Part shown: positions 15,235-23,185 of the stretch, piece after piece
How the letters are laid out: each line of letters opens with the position of its first letter
Position numbering within the stretch: the stretch's first letter is position 1
Assembly (NCBI GenBank): GCA_964291315.2
Contig: OZ219753.1
Location: 2,336,001-2,400,000, forward strand
Length of the DNA: 64,000 nt
Reading direction: 5' to 3'
Source of the DNA: Candidatus Poribacteria bacterium
GTDB lineage: Bacteria > Poribacteria > WGA-4E > WGA-3G
The notes under the pieces: generated by a model
Databases searched by the model: none
What the model was told of the DNA's origin: nothing
Seen by the model: the letters and a program-made list of their open reading frames with translations, nothing else
Translations under genes and position numbers: made by a program

Positions 15235-18200
15235 ATGAGTGGTGAAAAAAAAGAACAAATTCAGAATCGGCAATTAGCAGCCCGCTATTTGCTATTTGTA
15301 GCTTGTTATTTGCTATTTGTTATTTCTTGCGCCTCATGGGCACAGGGATTTGGGAAGAATAAAATCACAGGCCAACGTTTCGAGTGGCACATCCATAGGA
15401 CAGAGCACTTTGATATCCACTATTATCCCAGTGCAGCCAAACTGGTGCCTATTATGGCTGCTATTGCTGAGCAGGCTTACGAACAACACAGCTCTGATTT
15501 TGAACATGAGCTGCAAGACAGAACGCCGCTTATCCTTTACAAATCCCATAAAGACTTCCAAGAAACCAACATAATCCTCCAAGAACTCCACGAAGGCATC
15601 GGGGGGTTCGCTGAGATCTTTAAACACCGTATTGTTATACCTTTCACCGGGTCTCTCGAAGCATTTCGGGAAGTGATCTTCCACGAACTAATCCATATTT
15701 TTCAGTACGACATCATCTATCAAAAACCACATGCCCGCATCTATAGCGGCGAGTTTCTCTATTCTGCACCTATCTGGTTTATAGAGGGGATGGCAGATTA
15801 TTTTGCTGAAGATAACGATGCTATCGGTGAAATGGTGATTCGTGATGCAAGTATGAATAACAATATCGTACCGCTGCCGCAGCTCCACAATTTCAATCGA
15901 TTGAGATCGCCCTTCGTTGGGTATAAGCTGGGACAATTAGCGGTCGCCTATCTCACGGAGACCTATGGACGCGAAAAAATCGCTGAGATTTTGCAAGGAT
16001 TACGACAGAGCAGGACGAAAGATATTAACCAGGTTTTTATAGAAGTACTCGGGGTGAAGCTTGAAGAATTTGATAAGGCATGGAGGCAGACAGTCCGCAA
16101 ACGTTACTGGCCCCTCATTGAGCACAGAGAATTGCCTGACCTCGTAGCGAAGAACCTTACTGAGAAATCGAAATATTCACATAATATCAAACCGGTCTGG
16201 GCTCCTAGCGGCGATATTATCGCCTACGTCACCGGGAATGAAGGGTTTTTGGAAATTGTCCTTATGTCCGCGAAAACCGGAGAACGCATCAAGCGCATCA
16301 CAAAACGATTTTTCCGGGAAAAATACGAGGAAATTCGCACAGATTTCGGGGGATTTGGCAGGAGCCTCGCTTGGGCCCCCGATGGGGATAGGATAGCATT
16401 CATCGCTAAGTATCACGATGCAAACTACCTTCTTGAAGTTAATATTTTGACAGAGGAACTGACGCAGTACTTTGAACTCAATTTTGATAACGCTACCTCT
16501 CCAGACTATGATGGTAGCGGGGAACGTATCATCTTTTCCGCTCTAAAAAGCGGACAGACAGACCTCTATACCATTGAGTTGTTGACTGGTGAAATAAAAC
16601 GTTTAACATTCGACCTTTTCAACGATACCCATCCGTCGTGGCATCCAACAACAGGTAAAATCCTCTATACCTCTGAACGGGGCGGGAAAAATAGGCTCGT
16701 CCTTATGGACCTCAATCGCGGAACGGAACTTGTCCTGACAGATAACACCTATAATGCTGTTAGCCCCACGTGGGCACCAGGCGGCGAATCGATACTTTTT
16801 TGTTCTGATGCTAAAGGCATTTACGATGTTTACGAGCTTGAAATTGTGGAGAAAACCGGCACCGAGGAAAACGCCAATTCCAGAAAAGAGAAGCCCGTTG
16901 CACAACAGGCTAGTAGTGGTGACTCCAAAACAGAACAGGTCGCATCTGCAGAAGGGCATGTGGAGCCTTTAAAGCCATCTTTAGAGCTCAAACTTACGCG
17001 GCTTACCAACATCATGACGGGTTGTTTTAATCCAAGTTTGGCTCCAGATAGAGAGCATCTGCTGTTTAGCGCATACCAGAATGGAAAATACGATATCTGC
17101 CTGATGGATATTGGCAAAACCATTAAAGAGGAAATTGAAGTTTCAGACGGACCAGAACCGTCTGCAATTTTGACAGCAGAAGGCACAGAGAATTATAGGA
17201 TTGCTAAGCGAAAGTACAACACCCGTTCCTCTTTCGCCCTAGATGCAATCTTTCCTAATTTCAGTTTTGGTGCCGACGGTATCCTGAGAAGCACGGTACA
17301 AATCATCGGTAGTGATATGCTCGGCAACCATCGCATCGGAGTTAGTGTGATGAATCAATCCAGCTATCTTGCCCCAGATTTCATCGCGCAATATGGATTC
17401 TTGACACATCGAACCGATATTGGTGCCATGATTTATAACTATCATGAATACCATATTTTGGGCGGCATTCAGAACAGACGTGGTATTTTACAGCGGATTA
17501 CAGGGCTCGGGGCGTATCTCAATTACCCGTTCGACAGGTACCATCGCCTTGATTTTGAATTCTCGATGTACTCAAAGCCGTTTTCCTTTAATTTTCAAAC
17601 GAGGGAGCCTTTGGGACCCTACGCAGACGATAGAGGCTTGCTCACCGTTGGTTCTCTCGCTTTTGTTGGAGATACCACAATGTGGCGTGAGTGGGAGCCT
17701 TATACCGGTTCGCGCTACCGACTCCAACTTGAGCAGTCACTCCCCGCCCTCGGCAGTGATCTCGCGCTAACAAACCTTATTTTTGATGGACGCCGCTACT
17801 TCGGCCTGGGAAGGCGTTCTACGATTGCAGCGCGATTGTTGCTAGGTGGCAACTTCGGCCCTGACCAATCCTACTTCTACCTCGGCGGGATTGATACAAT
17901 CCGTGGTTATGATTACGAAGCTCTGGTCGGCACACGCATCGGACTTCTCAATTTGGAACTCCGTATTCCGTTCATAGATGTACTTCACTTCGGCTGGCCT
18001 GTCCCCTGGACGCTCGGAGGGATCCGTGGAATCCTCTTTGCAGATATAGGCGGCGCATGGTCGGATTGGCAATACGGCCCAGAAAATCCGTTCAGGATCT
18101 TTGTTCGAGAAAAAAATCGACTCCGGCTTGACGATGCTAAGGCAGCAGTTGGACTCGGACTTCGGCTCCAACTTGGAGTGTTTTCAGTCGACTTCGCAGC

Positions 18201-18273
18201 GGCGCGACTCACTGATCTCGCAGGATTCGAACCCGGGGTCAAGTACCACCTCGGACTCGGACAAGCTTTTTAA
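15235..18273 (+). CDS. Omp85/BamA-family outer-membrane protein with N-terminal gluzincin peptidase and TolB-like (PD40) beta-propeller
   Basis: QGFGKNK N-terminus; HELIH plus WFIEGMADY; WAP(S/D)G repeats; LGG.DTIRGY Omp85 motif; C-terminal Phe. Confidence 0.85.
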   Translation: MSGEKKEQIQNRQLAARYLLFVACYLLFVISCASWAQGFGKNKITGQRFEWHIHRTEHFDIHYYPSAAKLVPIMAAIAEQAYEQHSSDFEHELQDRTPLILYKSHKDFQETNIILQELHEGIGGFAEIFKHRIVIPFTGSLEAFREVIFHELIHIFQYDIIYQKPHARIYSGEFLYSAPIWFIEGMADYFAEDNDAIGEMVIRDASMNNNIVPLPQLHNFNRLRSPFVGYKLGQLAVAYLTETYGREKIAEILQGLRQSRTKDINQVFIEVLGVKLEEFDKAWRQTVRKRYWPLIEHRELPDLVAKNLTEKSKYSHNIKPVWAPSGDIIAYVTGNEGFLEIVLMSAKTGERIKRITKRFFREKYEEIRTDFGGFGRSLAWAPDGDRIAFIAKYHDANYLLEVNILTEELTQYFELNFDNATSPDYDGSGERIIFSALKSGQTDLYTIELLTGEIKRLTFDLFNDTHPSWHPTTGKILYTSERGGKNRLVLMDLNRGTELVLTDNTYNAVSPTWAPGGESILFCSDAKGIYDVYELEIVEKTGTEENANSRKEKPVAQQASSGDSKTEQVASAEGHVEPLKPSLELKLTRLTNIMTGCFNPSLAPDREHLLFSAYQNGKYDICLMDIGKTIKEEIEVSDGPEPSAILTAEGTENYRIAKRKYNTRSSFALDAIFPNFSFGADGILRSTVQIIGSDMLGNHRIGVSVMNQSSYLAPDFIAQYGFLTHRTDIGAMIYNYHEYHILGGIQNRRGILQRITGLGAYLNYPFDRYHRLDFEFSMYSKPFSFNFQTREPLGPYADDRGLLTVGSLAFVGDTTMWREWEPYTGSRYRLQLEQSLPALGSDLALTNLIFDGRRYFGLGRRSTIAARLLLGGNFGPDQSYFYLGGIDTIRGYDYEALVGTRIGLLNLELRIPFIDVLHFGWPVPWTLGGIRGILFADIGGAWSDWQYGPENPFRIFVREKNRLRLDDAKAAVGLGLRLQLGVFSVDFAAARLTDLAGFEPGVKYHLGLGQAF

Positions 18274-18439: not shown

Positions 18440-21400
18440 ATGGATTCACGAACCAAACGCTTTATTCCCACTGTTATTGTCCTTGCACTTATCGGAGCGC
18501 TAGTTGCTATTTGGGTTAACCTGTACCCTGACTTCCTGTGGTTTCAGGTAGTGGACTATTGGAGCATTTACACTAAAATTCTCACGACGAAAATCGGGGT
18601 CGGTGCAGTTGTTGGGGGCTGTTATTTAGCGATTCTCCTAACCAATCTTGCCATCATCTACCGATTCACGCCAGCGCATCTCAGCCCCGCATTTATGGGA
18701 GGTGCAGACTTCACAGGCGGTGCAATAGACAATCCGGGCGCTACGCGAAATCTAATTTATGGCGGACTCGCCCTTCTTGCTGTGCTCTTTAGCACCTTGA
18801 TGGGATACGCAGCCAGTGACCGATGGGAGATCTACCTACGTTTTACCAATGCAGATGAACTCACTTTCCCCGCTGCTACATCTATTGTCGTAGACGGGAG
18901 TCTTAACTCCAATGAAGTGCCAGTGGCACAATCGGAGCTCCGAGGAAAAAATATAAGAGCGGGCGATCTTGTAAACGTCCACATTGATGGAGCAAGTCAA
19001 GAGGCACATGTTGAGGCGGTGATGGAGAATGCTATTCGATTGAGTACGCCTGTTCAAATAGAATCCGGACAAAAGGCGTTTCTCACCTCGCCTGCACGCG
19101 ATCCAATTTTCAAAAAGGATGTTTCCTACTACGTCTTCAAAATGCCGATGTGGCGATATATCTGTGGGACCCTTTTCGGCCTTTTCTTGTTGGTTACCAT
19201 TTTCTCAACCGTCATCTACTTTTTCCACGGATTAATCACCGGTGATACCAGTCAATTTCGATTCTGCCCGCCTTTCAATGTGAAGGCACATCTGTTCACG
19301 CTCGTCGGGATAACGCTCCTCTGCCGGGCATGGAACTACGAATTCGCTATGTACGACTTGTTGTACACCTCAAACAACCTCGTACGCGGCGGTGGCGGAT
19401 ACGCCGCTATACAAGCACGGCTCCCTATATTGTGGATTATGCTCTGTATTACGATTATCTGCGCACTAGTTTTTATTGTGAGTATCTTCCTCAAGCGTAA
19501 CACCTTCGCATTCGGTGCCTTCATCGTTTTTCTCATCGCTGGTTTCCTCGGACAAGCCTATCCGGTCGCTATACAAAGGTGGCAAGTTGAACCCAGAAAA
19601 CAGGTATTAGAGGCAGATTATATAGACTATAATATTAAAGCGACACTCCAAGCGTACGGTTTGGCTGACAACACCGTGACCGAAGAAGAGTACCCGCTGA
19701 CCGAACAGCTCAGCTATGAGGACATAAGGAGTCCAGAGAACGCTCCGGTCTTTAATAGCATCCGCCTCTGGGATTGGCGGCCTTTGCGCAGAACTTTCCG
19801 TCAACTCCAAGAATTAAGATCGCAGTACGACTTTAACGACGTTGACATCGATCGCTATGTCGTTGATGGCGAAATTCGACAGGTGATGCTTTCTGGACGC
19901 GAACTCAATATCAACGAACTCCCAGTTGAGATCAGGAATGATTGGTATAAGCAGACATATACATATACGCACGGATACGGTGCAGTCGTGAGTCCTGTCA
20001 ATGAAATAGATAACGGGAAGCCGAACATGTACATTCAAGGGTTACCGCCTATTGACTATAGCGAACAGTGGCAGCACCGGTTTAGCGAAACACCGGGGCC
20101 TCGTATCTACTACGGTGAACGGACAAACCGTTACATTATCGTGCACCCTAATCGCACCCCGGGGCTTGAGTTCGATTACCCACAAGAGGGACAGCAGTAT
20201 GCCGAATACGCCTATAGCGGGCAAGGCGGGGTTCAGTTAAACTCCTTCTGGCGGAAACTGGTGTACATGCTCAAATTTGACAATGAAATTAACTTCGTCT
20301 TGCCGGGTGAAATTTCGTCCACAAGCAAAATCCTCTACGATCGAAATATTAAAAAACGCGTACAGAAAATCGTTCCGTTCTTGCGATATGATGACGATCC
20401 TTACATCGTTATTCATAACGGGCGACTTGTCTGGATAATTGATGCCTATACCATTACGCATCGCTACCCGTACTCCGTTTCTATGGAAGAATTCGTCGAC
20501 GAAAGAAGACGACGGATCGCAAATACGCGGCGAAATAGTGAACCTTGGGGCAACTACATCCGAAATTCCGTTAAAGTAGTCGTTGATGCTTACGACGGAA
20601 AGGTCGATTTTTACGTTATGGAGCGAGAGCGGGACCCTATTGTAGAGTGTTACCGTAAGATCTTCCCGGGCCTTTTCAAACCCTTTGCAGAGATGCCGGA
20701 CGAACTCAAAACACATATCCGGTACCCGACCTCTATGTTCTTCATCCAAGCCCGCATCTATCAGGATTATCACATGAAGGATCCGATAACGTTTTATGCA
20801 GGCGAGGATAAGTGGGAGATCGGCAGGGAACTTTATGACAATACGGATGCACAGACACGGCAGGTTGCGACTCCACAACAGAGAAACCCGTTCGCGCCAC
20901 AACAAGTCCCTCGAAACTCCGGGGTTAATAGTCAACTCGTTAAGCCTTACTATGTTGTCATTAGGCTGCCCGGGGAAGAAAAAGCGGAATTCATGTTGAT
21001 GTTGCCTTTCACACCGCTCAATAAGCCCAATCTTACCGCATGGCTTGCCGCTCGGTGCGATCTACCGCAATACGGACAACTCCTAGTCTATCGTTTCCCG
21101 AAAGGTAAACAGGTAGCCGGCCCCATGCAAGTTGAGAACTTTATTAGTCAAGAACCCGAAATTTCGCAACAGATTAGTCTCTGGAATACACAGGGATCTC
21201 GTGTCTTACGGGGCAACTTATTGATCCTTCCGATGAATAACTCCCTACTTTACGTTGAACCTATCTATATTCAGTCCGAAGACGAAAAAACCGCTATCCC
21301 CGAATTGCGGCGAGTCGTCATCGGATATGGTAATGAGGTCGTCTGGGGCGAAAGTCTTGATGAAGCTCTCGTCAAGATGTTCGGACGCGGAACATCCGAG

Positions 21401-21607
21401 CAAACAACGACTACCGCGACAACAACGGTTGAAACCGCAACTGACCCCGGTACAAATCAAACGCCACTGAGAAGTCTCATTCAACAAGCAAGCCGCCATT
21501 TCAATCAAGCCCAAGAGGCACAACGCACTGGCGATTGGACAGGATATGGGCAGTCACTTCAACTTTTAGAGGAGACTTTGCGTCAACTTGAAAGAACTAC
21601 ACAATAA
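18440..21607 (+). CDS. UPF0182 family membrane protein
   Basis: DPIF..DVSYY.F, IRLWD, YDF.DVDIDRY, YTHGYG, PRIYYGE, NYIRNSVK, LYVEP.Y. Confidence 0.92.
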   Translation: MDSRTKRFIPTVIVLALIGALVAIWVNLYPDFLWFQVVDYWSIYTKILTTKIGVGAVVGGCYLAILLTNLAIIYRFTPAHLSPAFMGGADFTGGAIDNPGATRNLIYGGLALLAVLFSTLMGYAASDRWEIYLRFTNADELTFPAATSIVVDGSLNSNEVPVAQSELRGKNIRAGDLVNVHIDGASQEAHVEAVMENAIRLSTPVQIESGQKAFLTSPARDPIFKKDVSYYVFKMPMWRYICGTLFGLFLLVTIFSTVIYFFHGLITGDTSQFRFCPPFNVKAHLFTLVGITLLCRAWNYEFAMYDLLYTSNNLVRGGGGYAAIQARLPILWIMLCITIICALVFIVSIFLKRNTFAFGAFIVFLIAGFLGQAYPVAIQRWQVEPRKQVLEADYIDYNIKATLQAYGLADNTVTEEEYPLTEQLSYEDIRSPENAPVFNSIRLWDWRPLRRTFRQLQELRSQYDFNDVDIDRYVVDGEIRQVMLSGRELNINELPVEIRNDWYKQTYTYTHGYGAVVSPVNEIDNGKPNMYIQGLPPIDYSEQWQHRFSETPGPRIYYGERTNRYIIVHPNRTPGLEFDYPQEGQQYAEYAYSGQGGVQLNSFWRKLVYMLKFDNEINFVLPGEISSTSKILYDRNIKKRVQKIVPFLRYDDDPYIVIHNGRLVWIIDAYTITHRYPYSVSMEEFVDERRRRIANTRRNSEPWGNYIRNSVKVVVDAYDGKVDFYVMERERDPIVECYRKIFPGLFKPFAEMPDELKTHIRYPTSMFFIQARIYQDYHMKDPITFYAGEDKWEIGRELYDNTDAQTRQVATPQQRNPFAPQQVPRNSGVNSQLVKPYYVVIRLPGEEKAEFMLMLPFTPLNKPNLTAWLAARCDLPQYGQLLVYRFPKGKQVAGPMQVENFISQEPEISQQISLWNTQGSRVLRGNLLILPMNNSLLYVEPIYIQSEDEKTAIPELRRVVIGYGNEVVWGESLDEALVKMFGRGTSEQTTTTATTTVETATDPGTNQTPLRSLIQQASRHFNQAQEAQRTGDWTGYGQSLQLLEETLRQLERTTQ

Positions 21608-21703
21608 GACAACTATTGACAAGCGATTAAAACGTTTGGCTTATACAAACCAGCTCTTAACCGATGACTCACACCTAATATGCCGCTAAAGGAGGTGAAA
21701 CAA

Positions 21704-21949
21704 ATGGCTCTTGATTGGAAACCACGGCACCGAGACATAATTATTGGAAATATCCCATGGTTAGCTAGAATTACCGATAAAGCCAATGCCAAACTGCAAG
21801 GCATTATCGGTGACTATATCTACCCGTGACCACAGGATAAGTTGTTCCTGGAGGAACACAAGATAAGTGCTGAGGCGTTCGTCGAAATGGTACGGAACAA
21901 TCCGTCAGACGATGAAATGATAGCCGCTATGAAGAAATTGGATCGTTAG
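21704..21949 (+). CDS. Probable selenoprotein, DUF5069-like (81 aa, Sec at residue 42)
   Basis: RBS AAGGAGGTGA at 21689-21698. Translation MALDWKPRHRDIIIGNIPWLARITDKANAKLQGIIGDYIYP(TGA 21827-21829)PQDKLFLEEHKISAEAFVEMVRNNPSDDEMIAAMKKLDR*. The family pattern continues past the TGA. Confidence 0.8.
21841..21859 (+). promoter_or_regulatory. Bacterial SECIS-like stem-loop
   Basis: GUUGUUCC-UGGA-GGAACAC with one bulged U and G in the loop, starting 11 nt after the UGA. Confidence 0.7.
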
Positions 21950-22117
21950 GGAAAGAGTTCGCAGCCATCAGCAGTCAGTAGATCGTTGTGGAGATAGCGA
22001 TCATTTTCTCCTGCTACCTGCTCTTTATTAAAAGTGTGGGGAGCCGTTGTGTCTCATTTTTTACCACAAACCGATTCTTCTGATTGCTGATAACTAATAA
22101 CACGGAGACCTATTTCT

Positions 22118-23185
22118 TTGGAACTGACAAAGTACCGTGATCAAATTAACGAGATTGACGACCAGATTTTACATCTTCTACAGAACCGAGCAGAAATTTC
22201 CAAACAGGTCGGTGCAGTAAAAGCAGAAACAGGTGTTGCTAGCGTTTACGTTCCACATCGACACAAGCAGGTCATTGAACGCTTGAAGGTGAAAAATCAA
22301 AACCTATTCCCGGAAGGTGCGTTGGAGGCGATCTGGAGAGAAATTTTATCTGCCTCTCGTTCTTTGCAGGAACCCGAACGGGTTGCTTTTCTCGGGCCCG
22401 TGGGTAGTTTTGGACACTTAGCAGCCCTATGTCATTTCGGTGCCTCGACAGAGCTTATTCCGGTCCGTCCACAGACAGACATCTTTACTGAAGTTGAGTC
22501 TGGCAGAACCGACTATGGTGTGGTGGCTATCCAGAATTCTCTGCATGGCACTGTTCGTGATGTTCTCGAATGTTTTCAACGTACACCTTTATCGATTTGT
22601 GCAGAGGCGTTCCAGCCGATAAGACAGCACCTCTTATCAAAGTCGCCGATCACGGAAATCCGACGTATCTACTCACACCCGCAACCTTTCGCGCAGTGTA
22701 AGACCTGGCTGCAGCGGTATCTCACTAACGCTGAGCAGGTCGAGGTCGTCAGCACGTCTGAGGCAGCAGAACGGGCTGCAGCAGAACCAGCCGCTGCTGC
22801 AATTGCAAGTGAGCTTGCAAGCGAAATTTATCAGATTCCGATCATCGCAAATTCCATTATGGATGAATCTGATAACACAACCCGTTTTTTTATCATCGGA
22901 AAACACCAACCCGACTCAAGCGGGTACGATCGAACTTCGCTCTTCTGTGCCATTCCTGACAAGGTTGGGGCACTACACCAGGCCCTCGGTATATTAGAGG
23001 AAACAGGGTTGAATCTCAGTTATCTGGAATCTTTGCCATCCCGAACCAAACCTTGGGAGTACATCTTCTTTGTTGAAATGGAGGGCCATATCGCCGACGA
23101 CCGCGTCGGCGGGGCTCTTAATCGACTCGAAGCATTGTGCCGCGAAGTTAAGGTTCTCGGATCTTACCCACGCGGTACTCAGTAA
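22118..23185 (+). CDS. pheA: Chorismate mutase/prephenate dehydratase (P-protein)
   Basis: R..I..ID chorismate mutase helix; AFLGP.GSF, YSHPQ..AQC, NTTRF; ACT domain with ES.PS..WEY.FF. Confidence 0.93.
   Translation: MELTKYRDQINEIDDQILHLLQNRAEISKQVGAVKAETGVASVYVPHRHKQVIERLKVKNQNLFPEGALEAIWREILSASRSLQEPERVAFLGPVGSFGHLAALCHFGASTELIPVRPQTDIFTEVESGRTDYGVVAIQNSLHGTVRDVLECFQRTPLSICAEAFQPIRQHLLSKSPITEIRRIYSHPQPFAQCKTWLQRYLTNAEQVEVVSTSEAAERAAAEPAAAAIASELASEIYQIPIIANSIMDESDNTTRFFIIGKHQPDSSGYDRTSLFCAIPDKVGALHQALGILEETGLNLSYLESLPSRTKPWEYIFFVEMEGHIADDRVGGALNRLEALCREVKVLGSYPRGTQ

Follow-up and report, generated by a model that had tools for sequence, protein, structure and literature searches.

Does the TGA at positions 21827-21829 of this stretch close a short open reading frame (ORF), or does it encode selenocysteine (Sec) within a longer gene? 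The stretch, called the window here, is 64,000 nucleotides (nt) long and represents C4:2336001-2400000 of a Candidatus Poribacteria metagenome-assembled genome (MAG) of 4.40 Mb in 4 contigs. An earlier note on this DNA proposed that a ribosome-binding site, an ATG at 21704, this in-frame TGA and 39 further codons up to a TAG ending at 21949 form a gene for an 81-residue selenoprotein that resembles DUF5069, is followed at the TGA by a Sec insertion sequence (SECIS) hairpin, and would be missed by standard gene callers. As checks, it named the Sec genes of the genome, the codon kept by relatives, covariation in the hairpin and purifying selection after the TGA. Comparison of the locus with its relatives indicates that it is very probably a Sec-decoded gene with a downstream SECIS. 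It is a new selenoprotein family, absent from the literature searched, and not a new kind of system. The elements of the gene are the following.

21689..21698, plus strand: Shine-Dalgarno sequence AAGGAGGTGA, 5 nt upstream of the start codon
21704..21949, plus strand: coding sequence of the predicted 81-amino acid (aa) short-form DUF5069 selenoprotein, from ATG 21704 and including TAG 21947-21949
21827..21829, plus strand: UGA codon 42, predicted to encode Sec (U), in the motif Y-x-Y-P-U-P-x-D; the TGA is conserved, and homologues have Cys
21841..21859, plus strand: putative SECIS hairpin, marked by frozen synonymous sites, an RNAalifold stem, covariation and presence with TGA only

Every coordinate proposed for the gene proved right. 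The TGA is followed by 39 sense codons and the TAG, and the read-through product is 81 aa long, with U42 within YIYPUPQD and no Cys. A GGAGG-type site precedes the ATG in nearly all of 50 orthologous loci extracted from relatives. The ORF listing under genetic code table 11 gives only a 49-aa ORF (21680-21829), so a gene caller would truncate the gene at the TGA, in support of the proposal that standard callers miss the protein.

The TGA is conserved. A six-frame search with the read-through protein covered the window's genome and 60 relatives (61 genomes; 8 genera, 4 families, one order); 60 of the 61 yielded an orthologue that contains a single TGA. These 60 orthologues are 66-99% identical across the whole 81 aa and have the TGA in the same column, while the single genome without one is an 81%-complete assembly. 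All 50 extracted loci have U at this column, and protein conservation continues beyond it (FLEE..., NPSD[DE][DE]MI). The same holds for the TGA in 80/80 loci from named Poribacteria MAG records, a set that overlaps in part with the 50. Relatives thus keep TGA, not TGC or TGT, in both sets. At the level of the phylum, an orthologue occurs in 168 of 176 genomes (E <= 1e-15). Three other Poribacteria families outside the window's order have TGA, and one family (8 genomes, 5 genera) has TGC or TGT in its place. Loss of the Sec machinery was considered as the origin of this Cys form and rejected, since the family retains selB (8/8 at E <= 1e-40; 7 above cut-off) and selA (7/8).

Selection acts on both sides of the codon. 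Within the genus, the median ratio of nonsynonymous to synonymous substitution rates (dN/dS, Nei-Gojobori) was 0.039 upstream of the TGA (codons 2-41) and 0.081 downstream of it (codons 43-79), with both medians taken over 406 non-independent pairs. The value of about 0.08 past the TGA is the purifying selection that had been named as a check, and implies that the downstream part is translated and constrained.

At the far end of the gene, the orthologues L055 and L057-L063 (family f2) carry a Lys/Ser/Arg-rich C-terminal tail of 12-17 residues, for example KPSKKRKSKSRKS. Most of them stop at TGA, such that one gene would use TGA as Sec and as stop.

The TGA form extends beyond Poribacteria. A metagenome scan with a profile of non-Poribacteria Cys short forms yielded 540 relatives among 599 candidate stretches, and among the best 80 loci, which were kept, the column is TGA in 41 and TGC or TGT in 39. 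Seven of the 41 TGA loci are of Poribacteria type. The others fall into a clade of 16 with [DE]FRPR[SG]R...YP-U-[GPS]AD[KR][KR]FLE[EG]LG and a clade of 18 with [EDK]FKPRARG...[YF]P-U-[GA]AD[QEA]RFL[ED][EG]. By these motifs, two further uncultured metagenome clades carry the same predicted Sec form.

The read-through protein belongs to DUF5069. Its match to the Pfam profile (PF16798; E 1.9e-12) scores 47.9 bits against a curated cut-off of 27, which bears out the resemblance proposed in the earlier note. In the six-frame genome search, the DUF5069 score of the locus was 44.3 bits. The match spans residues 7-78, corresponding to profile positions 4-75 of 133; the full-length domain is not reached, and the protein stops at residue 81. 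Many relatives are likewise short, at 80-95 aa, and the 81-aa protein is therefore a short-form subfamily and no truncation. A protein atlas query with a natural Cys orthologue returned DUF5069 clusters only (scores 0.84-0.87). The NCBIfam scan of the read-through protein gave zero matches at E <= 1.

The position of the TGA within this domain is that of a Cys, as had been proposed for the Cys of YPCP.D. When 1.84 billion representative proteins were screened with a profile built from 16 Sec orthologues, 486 relatives came up at E <= 1e-3, of which 44 reached E <= 1e-10. Distant homologues were represented by 62 rows, these being a 77-row alignment minus the Poribacteria Sec orthologues and their close Cys orthologues. 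Column 42 is Cys in 54 of the 62, in the motif Y-x-Y-P-C-P-x-D, and this is often the sole Cys. True Cys orthologues also exist at 62-70% identity, one of them recorded as hypothetical and assigned to a Candidatus Poribacteria bacterium.

The putative SECIS lies within the coding sequence, in codons 47-52 (L-F-L-E-E-H). It begins 11 nt past the TGA and consists of GTTGTTCC (21841-21848), TGGA (21849-21852) and GGAACAC (21853-21859). The core stem pairs GUUCC (21844-21848) with GGAAC (21853-21857) around the loop UGGA (21849-21852), and the window has its own extension of this stem, with U21843-A21858 and G21841-C21859 paired and U21842 bulged. In a per-codon tally over the 50 loci, codons 48-51 (F-L-E-E) are frozen (TTC 50/50, CTG 50/50, GAG 50/50, GAA 49/50), and all other degenerate codons vary synonymously. 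The synonymous difference rate pS is 0.03 at codons 48-51 versus about 0.46 elsewhere. RNAalifold returned exactly the 5-base pair (bp) stem GUUCC-UGGA-GGAAC. The conserved element is thus the 5-bp GUUCC/GGAAC stem, which reaches 7 bp in many rows, and its UGGA loop 19 nt past the UGA; this distance is 22 nt in one genus, which has one extra codon.

Covariation supports the hairpin. Over the 7-bp helix, 90.8% of cells are paired in 48 distinct Poribacteria rows (slid controls, 27-69%); 3 pairs changed on both sides, 10 such cells were counted, and the covariation score was reached in 0/500 shuffles. The 81 distinct TGA-form rows, which take in the two non-Poribacteria clades, gave 90.3% paired cells (slid controls, 27-66%), again with 3 pairs changed on both sides and 0/500 shuffles at the score. 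In these rows, 63 cells were changed on both sides; shuffles gave 24.7 ± 3.2, and no slid control exceeded 12. Pair 24-37 was GC in 65 rows, CG in 14, AU in 1 and GU in 1, and was never unpaired; pair 23-38 was UA in 34, AU in 17, GC in 8, GU in 8 and something else in 14. The loop UGGA is invariant in 81/81.

The hairpin also follows the codon. Defined as a UGGA loop 15-25 nt past the codon on a stem of 5 or more consecutive pairs, it was found in 94/94 TGA-form loci and 0/47 Cys-form loci. The Cys forms vary at these codons (TTC CTC GAG CGA, TTT CTC GAA CGC, TGG CTT CAA AAA) and have K, R or Q in place of E as the fourth residue. This variation in the Cys forms indicates that the frozen bases reflect a constraint on the RNA and not on the protein.

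The SECIS of Escherichia coli fdhF, which is bound by SelB, has an 11-nt spacing, a bulged U and a loop G. The earlier note drew a likeness to this element, and it stands in part. A hairpin is present 11 nt past the TGA, and the spacer and a possible bulged U of the window's copy resemble those of fdhF; the unpaired G of the fdhF apical loop is likewise matched by the invariant UGGA loop. However, the bulged U and the 11-nt spacer are confined to the window and its nearest relatives. The bulge is not conserved, with GTTG...CAC in only 5/48 distinct rows, and most rows have an unbulged stem of 6-7 bp. The present element is also shorter than that of fdhF. Compared to bacterial SECIS elements generally, an invariant loop and top four pairs over three clades amount to an unusual uniformity.

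A published model of bacterial SECIS elements (PMC13188914) allows a loop of 3-9 nt, an upper stem of 4-16 bp and 16-37 nt from UGA to loop, with GG or GU near the start of the loop. All of the values found here (loop of 4 nt with GG from position 2, stem of 5-7 bp, distance of 19 or 22 nt) lie inside these ranges.

Could the UGA instead be a real stop? The gene would then yield a 41-aa peptide and perhaps a second downstream product, and the hairpin would serve mRNA stability or attenuation. Gene callers do give exactly such fragments: many matches to the Sec-orthologue profile are truncated calls that end in ...YIYP, and a few are C-terminal fragments that start with MFLEE. However, a single Pfam domain and a single solved fold cover both halves. 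The second half has no start codon or ribosome-binding site in the window (codon 47 is a TTG Leu), and the reading frame is kept across the TGA in every locus, including those of the one genus with a 3-nt insertion. Finally, the hairpin vanishes exactly where the codon is Cys. We consider a real stop very unlikely.

The genome is equipped to read UGA as Sec. All four genes named as a check are present, each above its curated cut-off: selA (588.9 bits), selB (328.8 bits, cut-off 242), selC, the tRNA-Sec gene, immediately adjoining selB (78.1 bits), and selD (L009, C4:721841-722893; 357.3 bits). The selD gene has one in-frame TGA of its own (KCAG-U-ASKL), with a hairpin GCUCC-AGG-GGAGC whose loop is 17 nt past that UGA and which resembles the element of the DUF5069 gene.

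These genes also bear on a second alternative, that UGA is read as Trp, Gly or Cys through a changed code or near-cognate decoding. Public sets do hold 81-aa versions of full length in which W takes the place of Sec. They come from contigs of 530-900 bases, and we infer that they are miscalls by a gene caller using a TGA=Trp table. The W forms, the ...YIYP stubs and the MFLEE fragments (P0152-P0159, P0161, P0163, P0164, P0166) are all annotation artefacts of the in-frame TGA. TGA closes the reading frame of this same gene in several orthologues and is therefore also an ordinary stop in these organisms, and the table 11 ORFs of neighbouring genes are intact. Moreover, homologues carry Cys at the column and not Trp or Gly, the genome keeps the whole Sec pathway, and the hairpin agrees with the SelB-type SECIS model. 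We consider decoding as another residue very unlikely as well.

That the TGA is an accident in a normally Cys DUF5069 gene, through a pseudogene, a nonsense mutation or an assembly error, is scarcely credible: the table 11 ORF does stop at 21829 and one Poribacteria family does encode Cys, but the same TGA recurs in 50/50 and 80/80 loci of independent assemblies and in 41 of the best 80 metagenome loci, dN/dS stays near 0.08 beyond it, and the hairpin accompanies TGA in 94/94 loci and a Cys codon in none.

Several observations weigh against decoding of this gene by Sec, or against its proposed function. Single-sequence folding of 21824-21880 gave -11.9 kcal/mol with z = -0.05, and 89/200 shuffles were as good or better; the minimum-energy fold of this segment favours a competing CAGGA/UCCUG pairing. 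The stem is short, at 5-7 bp. The significance of the hairpin comes from the comparison with relatives and not from single-sequence folding. The kin are not independent, and the large counts stem from few lineages, with three Sec clades. At the Sec/Cys column, 8 of the 62 distant homologues have no Cys. Four further DUF5069 domains in the same genome also have no Cys, with Y-x-Y-G-x-x-S-x-x-D instead:

C1:171073-172323, minus strand: three tandem DUF5069 domains in one 440-aa frame (L022-L024), no Cys
C4:1741028-1741375: single DUF5069 domain (L025), no Cys

These domains and the 8 homologues indicate that the DUF5069 fold is not always in need of a thiol or selenol. A comparison of neighbouring genes across all clades found no shared partner, which makes the functional part of our reading a matter of what we infer.

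How the Sec form arose was approached with a quick tree of 97 rows and 71 columns, from which the Sec column and the FLEE columns were removed and in which many forks are poorly settled. All 51 Sec rows fall within a single 61-row clade, which has a support of 92 in the Shimodaira-Hasegawa-like approximate likelihood ratio test (SH-aLRT). It splits into three subclades, and Cys rows sit at or close to the base of every one. The minimum number of Sec/Cys state changes on the tree is 3, against 32.6 in shuffles. Taken alone, the tree favours three gains of Sec. The identical hairpin across the clades argues for a single origin with later Cys replacements.

The predicted structure places the Sec at the start of a helix. 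AlphaFold2, run with the 77-row alignment, gave a model with a mean predicted local distance difference test score (pLDDT) of 87.5 and a predicted template modelling score (pTM) of 0.73. Its helices comprise residues 20-32, 43-51, 56-65 and 69-80; with helix 2 beginning at residue 43, U42 would be its N-cap. Foldseek matched the model to a single entry of the Protein Data Bank (PDB), 3omd, a protein of Leptospirillum rubarum with function unknown (E 5e-4, TM score normalised to the query 0.86, root-mean-square deviation 1.0 Å over 74 columns). The next match in the PDB had E = 3, and that fold search gave no link to thioredoxin, rhodanese or another redox fold. The profile of Sec orthologues also matches 3omd (E 6e-16), with Y-N-C-P-L-D aligned to Y-P-U-P-Q-D. 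Thus the model has the same fold as 3omd, whereas the Sec protein differs from Pfam DUF5069 and 3omd in being a short form without the C-terminal half and in having Sec in place of Cys.

Residues R8, R22, D25, K26 and D45 are nearly invariant. Since the Sec protein lacks any Cys, any selenium chemistry must be intermolecular. A nucleophile at a helix N-terminus, a set of near-invariant residues and the absence of Cys would be consistent with a single Sec as the reactive centre and a thiol or substrate from outside the protein as its reaction partner. We tentatively regard the product as a thiol/selenol redox or sulfur/selenium-transfer protein, an assignment that is slightly less likely to hold than to fail.

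If UGA is decoded as Sec here, expression might proceed as follows. SelB-GTP-Sec-tRNA(Sec) would bind the hairpin, in which the loop GG and the top C-G pairs never vary, and this complex would deliver Sec to a ribosome paused at the UGA. Translation would then proceed through the hairpin, itself coding for F-L-E-E, for 39 more codons. The product would be an 81-aa, four-helix short-form DUF5069 protein with Sec42 capping the N-terminus of helix 2. Most likely, this Sec would act as a nucleophile and form a selenenylsulfide with a substrate or a partner thiol, to be recycled by a glutaredoxin/thioredoxin-reductase-type system.

The genes around the locus differ between clades. In the window, the upstream neighbour is a UPF0182 membrane protein gene (18440-21607), and the downstream neighbours are pheA (22118-23185; chorismate mutase, prephenate dehydratase and ACT) and then queG. 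The pheA gene lies directly downstream in 46/50 loci of the order and 10/11 loci of other families, Cys forms included, and this adjacency (56/61 loci) persists down to 42% PheA identity. UPF0182 is upstream in 44/50 loci of the order and 0/11 of the other families. Adjacency to pheA holds only in Poribacteria-type loci; neighbours in the other clades include HDOD, solute-binding, PF03602 methyltransferase, APH kinase and NAD-binding oxidoreductase genes. In 5/5 loci of one Poribacteria family, a fusion of glutaredoxin (Grx) with a pyridine-nucleotide-disulfide reductase, of thioredoxin-reductase-like type, is directly upstream on the same strand. It encodes 408 aa and stops about 25 nt before the selenoprotein gene, a placement that hints at a redox role for the latter. 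The features found around the gene are:

L072-L076, about 250-1476 in the oriented loci, and L187:2753-3976: Grx-thioredoxin-reductase-like fusion
21981..22002 of the window, plus strand: terminator-like hairpin with a T-rich run behind it, 32 nt past the stop codon, a consensus match only

Terminator-like sites number 2 in 21500-22250, against 0.7 ± 0.7 in shuffles, and the selenoprotein gene may perhaps terminate its own transcript at 21981-22002. Of the sequencing runs listed as containing this stretch, four are of DNA type, from a single study, and none is RNA.

Adjacency to pheA in 56/61 loci, together with the Grx-reductase fusion upstream in one family, suggested a more far-reaching possibility, which we consider unlikely. 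The protein would represent a new single-Sec redox or sulfur/selenium-transfer class with a four-helix fold not related to thioredoxin, tied in Poribacteria to aromatic amino-acid synthesis, and its Sec form and SECIS would have a single origin, from which they reached three or more uncultured marine lineages. If that were true, the Sec protein would be a redox switch or a reductant for the P-protein pathway.

A second upstream neighbour was seen in 12 metagenome loci of two clades (L168-L172, L218-L220, L223, L229, L235, L244). It is a protein of 340-420 aa without a Pfam match, encoded directly upstream on the same strand as either Cys- or Sec-form genes, and D-x-x-x-x-N and D-F/W motifs, discerned by eye, give it a kinase-like appearance.

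The literature searched agrees with the earlier statement that DUF5069 is not known as an established family of selenoproteins. Neither DUF5069 nor PF16798 is mentioned in any of the about 8.4 million full texts searched, and the one paper there that brings Poribacteria and selenoproteins together concerns hydrogenases. Table 1 of a May 2026 review lists 119 prokaryotic selenoprotein families and subfamilies with domain identifiers (PMC13188914). The whole of this table has no entry for DUF5069 or PF16798, in keeping with the same statement, while supplementary lists and BSepDB may still hold one. DUF5069 is not among the new families in the available part of the deep-Sep paper either. The present case has the same kind of evidence as the listed families, namely a Sec/Cys pair, TGA orthologues, a SECIS and the Sec machinery. 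It differs from them in that most show either a UxxC/CxxU motif or the fold of thioredoxin, whereas Sec DUF5069 has neither, and no second Cys.

Among families of hypothetical proteins, the lack of an NCBIfam match means that the DUF5069 protein is neither GOS_B (NF041374) nor GOS_C (NF045500). A parallel by description is GOS_A, a marine metagenome selenoprotein family with 2 Sec and 155 Cys members, named by Zhang and Gladyshev in 2008 (PMC2398784). As described there, it is alike in its marine metagenome source, in having no named domain and in its few Sec and many Cys members. A 2022 review gives GOS_A as lacking a conserved domain, whereas a DUF5069 member should show pfam16798, so on these descriptions the two are probably different families.

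As a Sec protein, this short form would offer DUF5069, for which a structure has been solved, its first hint of function. Because selection keeps both the Sec codon and an RNA signal, the residue at the Sec/Cys position of Y-P-C-P-x-D matters. The result also fixes the annotation of one gene in about 160 Poribacteria genomes and in many metagenome contigs, where it now appears either as two pieces, a 41-residue stub plus a fragment, or with Trp at the Sec position. An unusually uniform and short SECIS would be a convenient model for SelB target recognition in these uncultured bacteria. Poribacteria are prominent sponge symbionts, and a conserved selenoprotein therefore bears on their redox biology and selenium demand.

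Other genes of the genome are also interrupted by TGA. A crude genome-wide SECIS-style scan gave 13 candidates, of which at least one was discarded as false, being a junction between two genes. Three of the candidates are AhpC/TSA-Redoxin genes with the TGA at a redox position:

C1:366602-367747 (L248): AhpC/TSA-Redoxin gene, W-U-G-C
C4:2252917-2254065 (L249): AhpC/TSA-Redoxin gene, W-U-P-F-C
C4:1108533-1109180 (L250): AhpC/TSA-Redoxin gene, T-U-G-I-C

Each has a G[G/U]-loop hairpin 21 nt past its TGA. These three genes are probably Sec forms of known peroxiredoxin (Prx)-like families. A further pair of candidate frames, each with a SECIS-like hairpin, is located at C3:361658-363277 (L251) and C3:253118-255283 (L252):

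L251: WD40/PSCyt1 protein with a C-terminal GMT-U-QAC motif resembling a metal-binding site
L252: 722-aa frame without a Pfam match, with C-U-GSGK

Elsewhere in the window, an ORF of 1012 aa at 15235-18273 joins Peptidase_MA_2 to PD40 beta-propeller repeats and an Omp85 barrel at the C-terminus, an unusual architecture.

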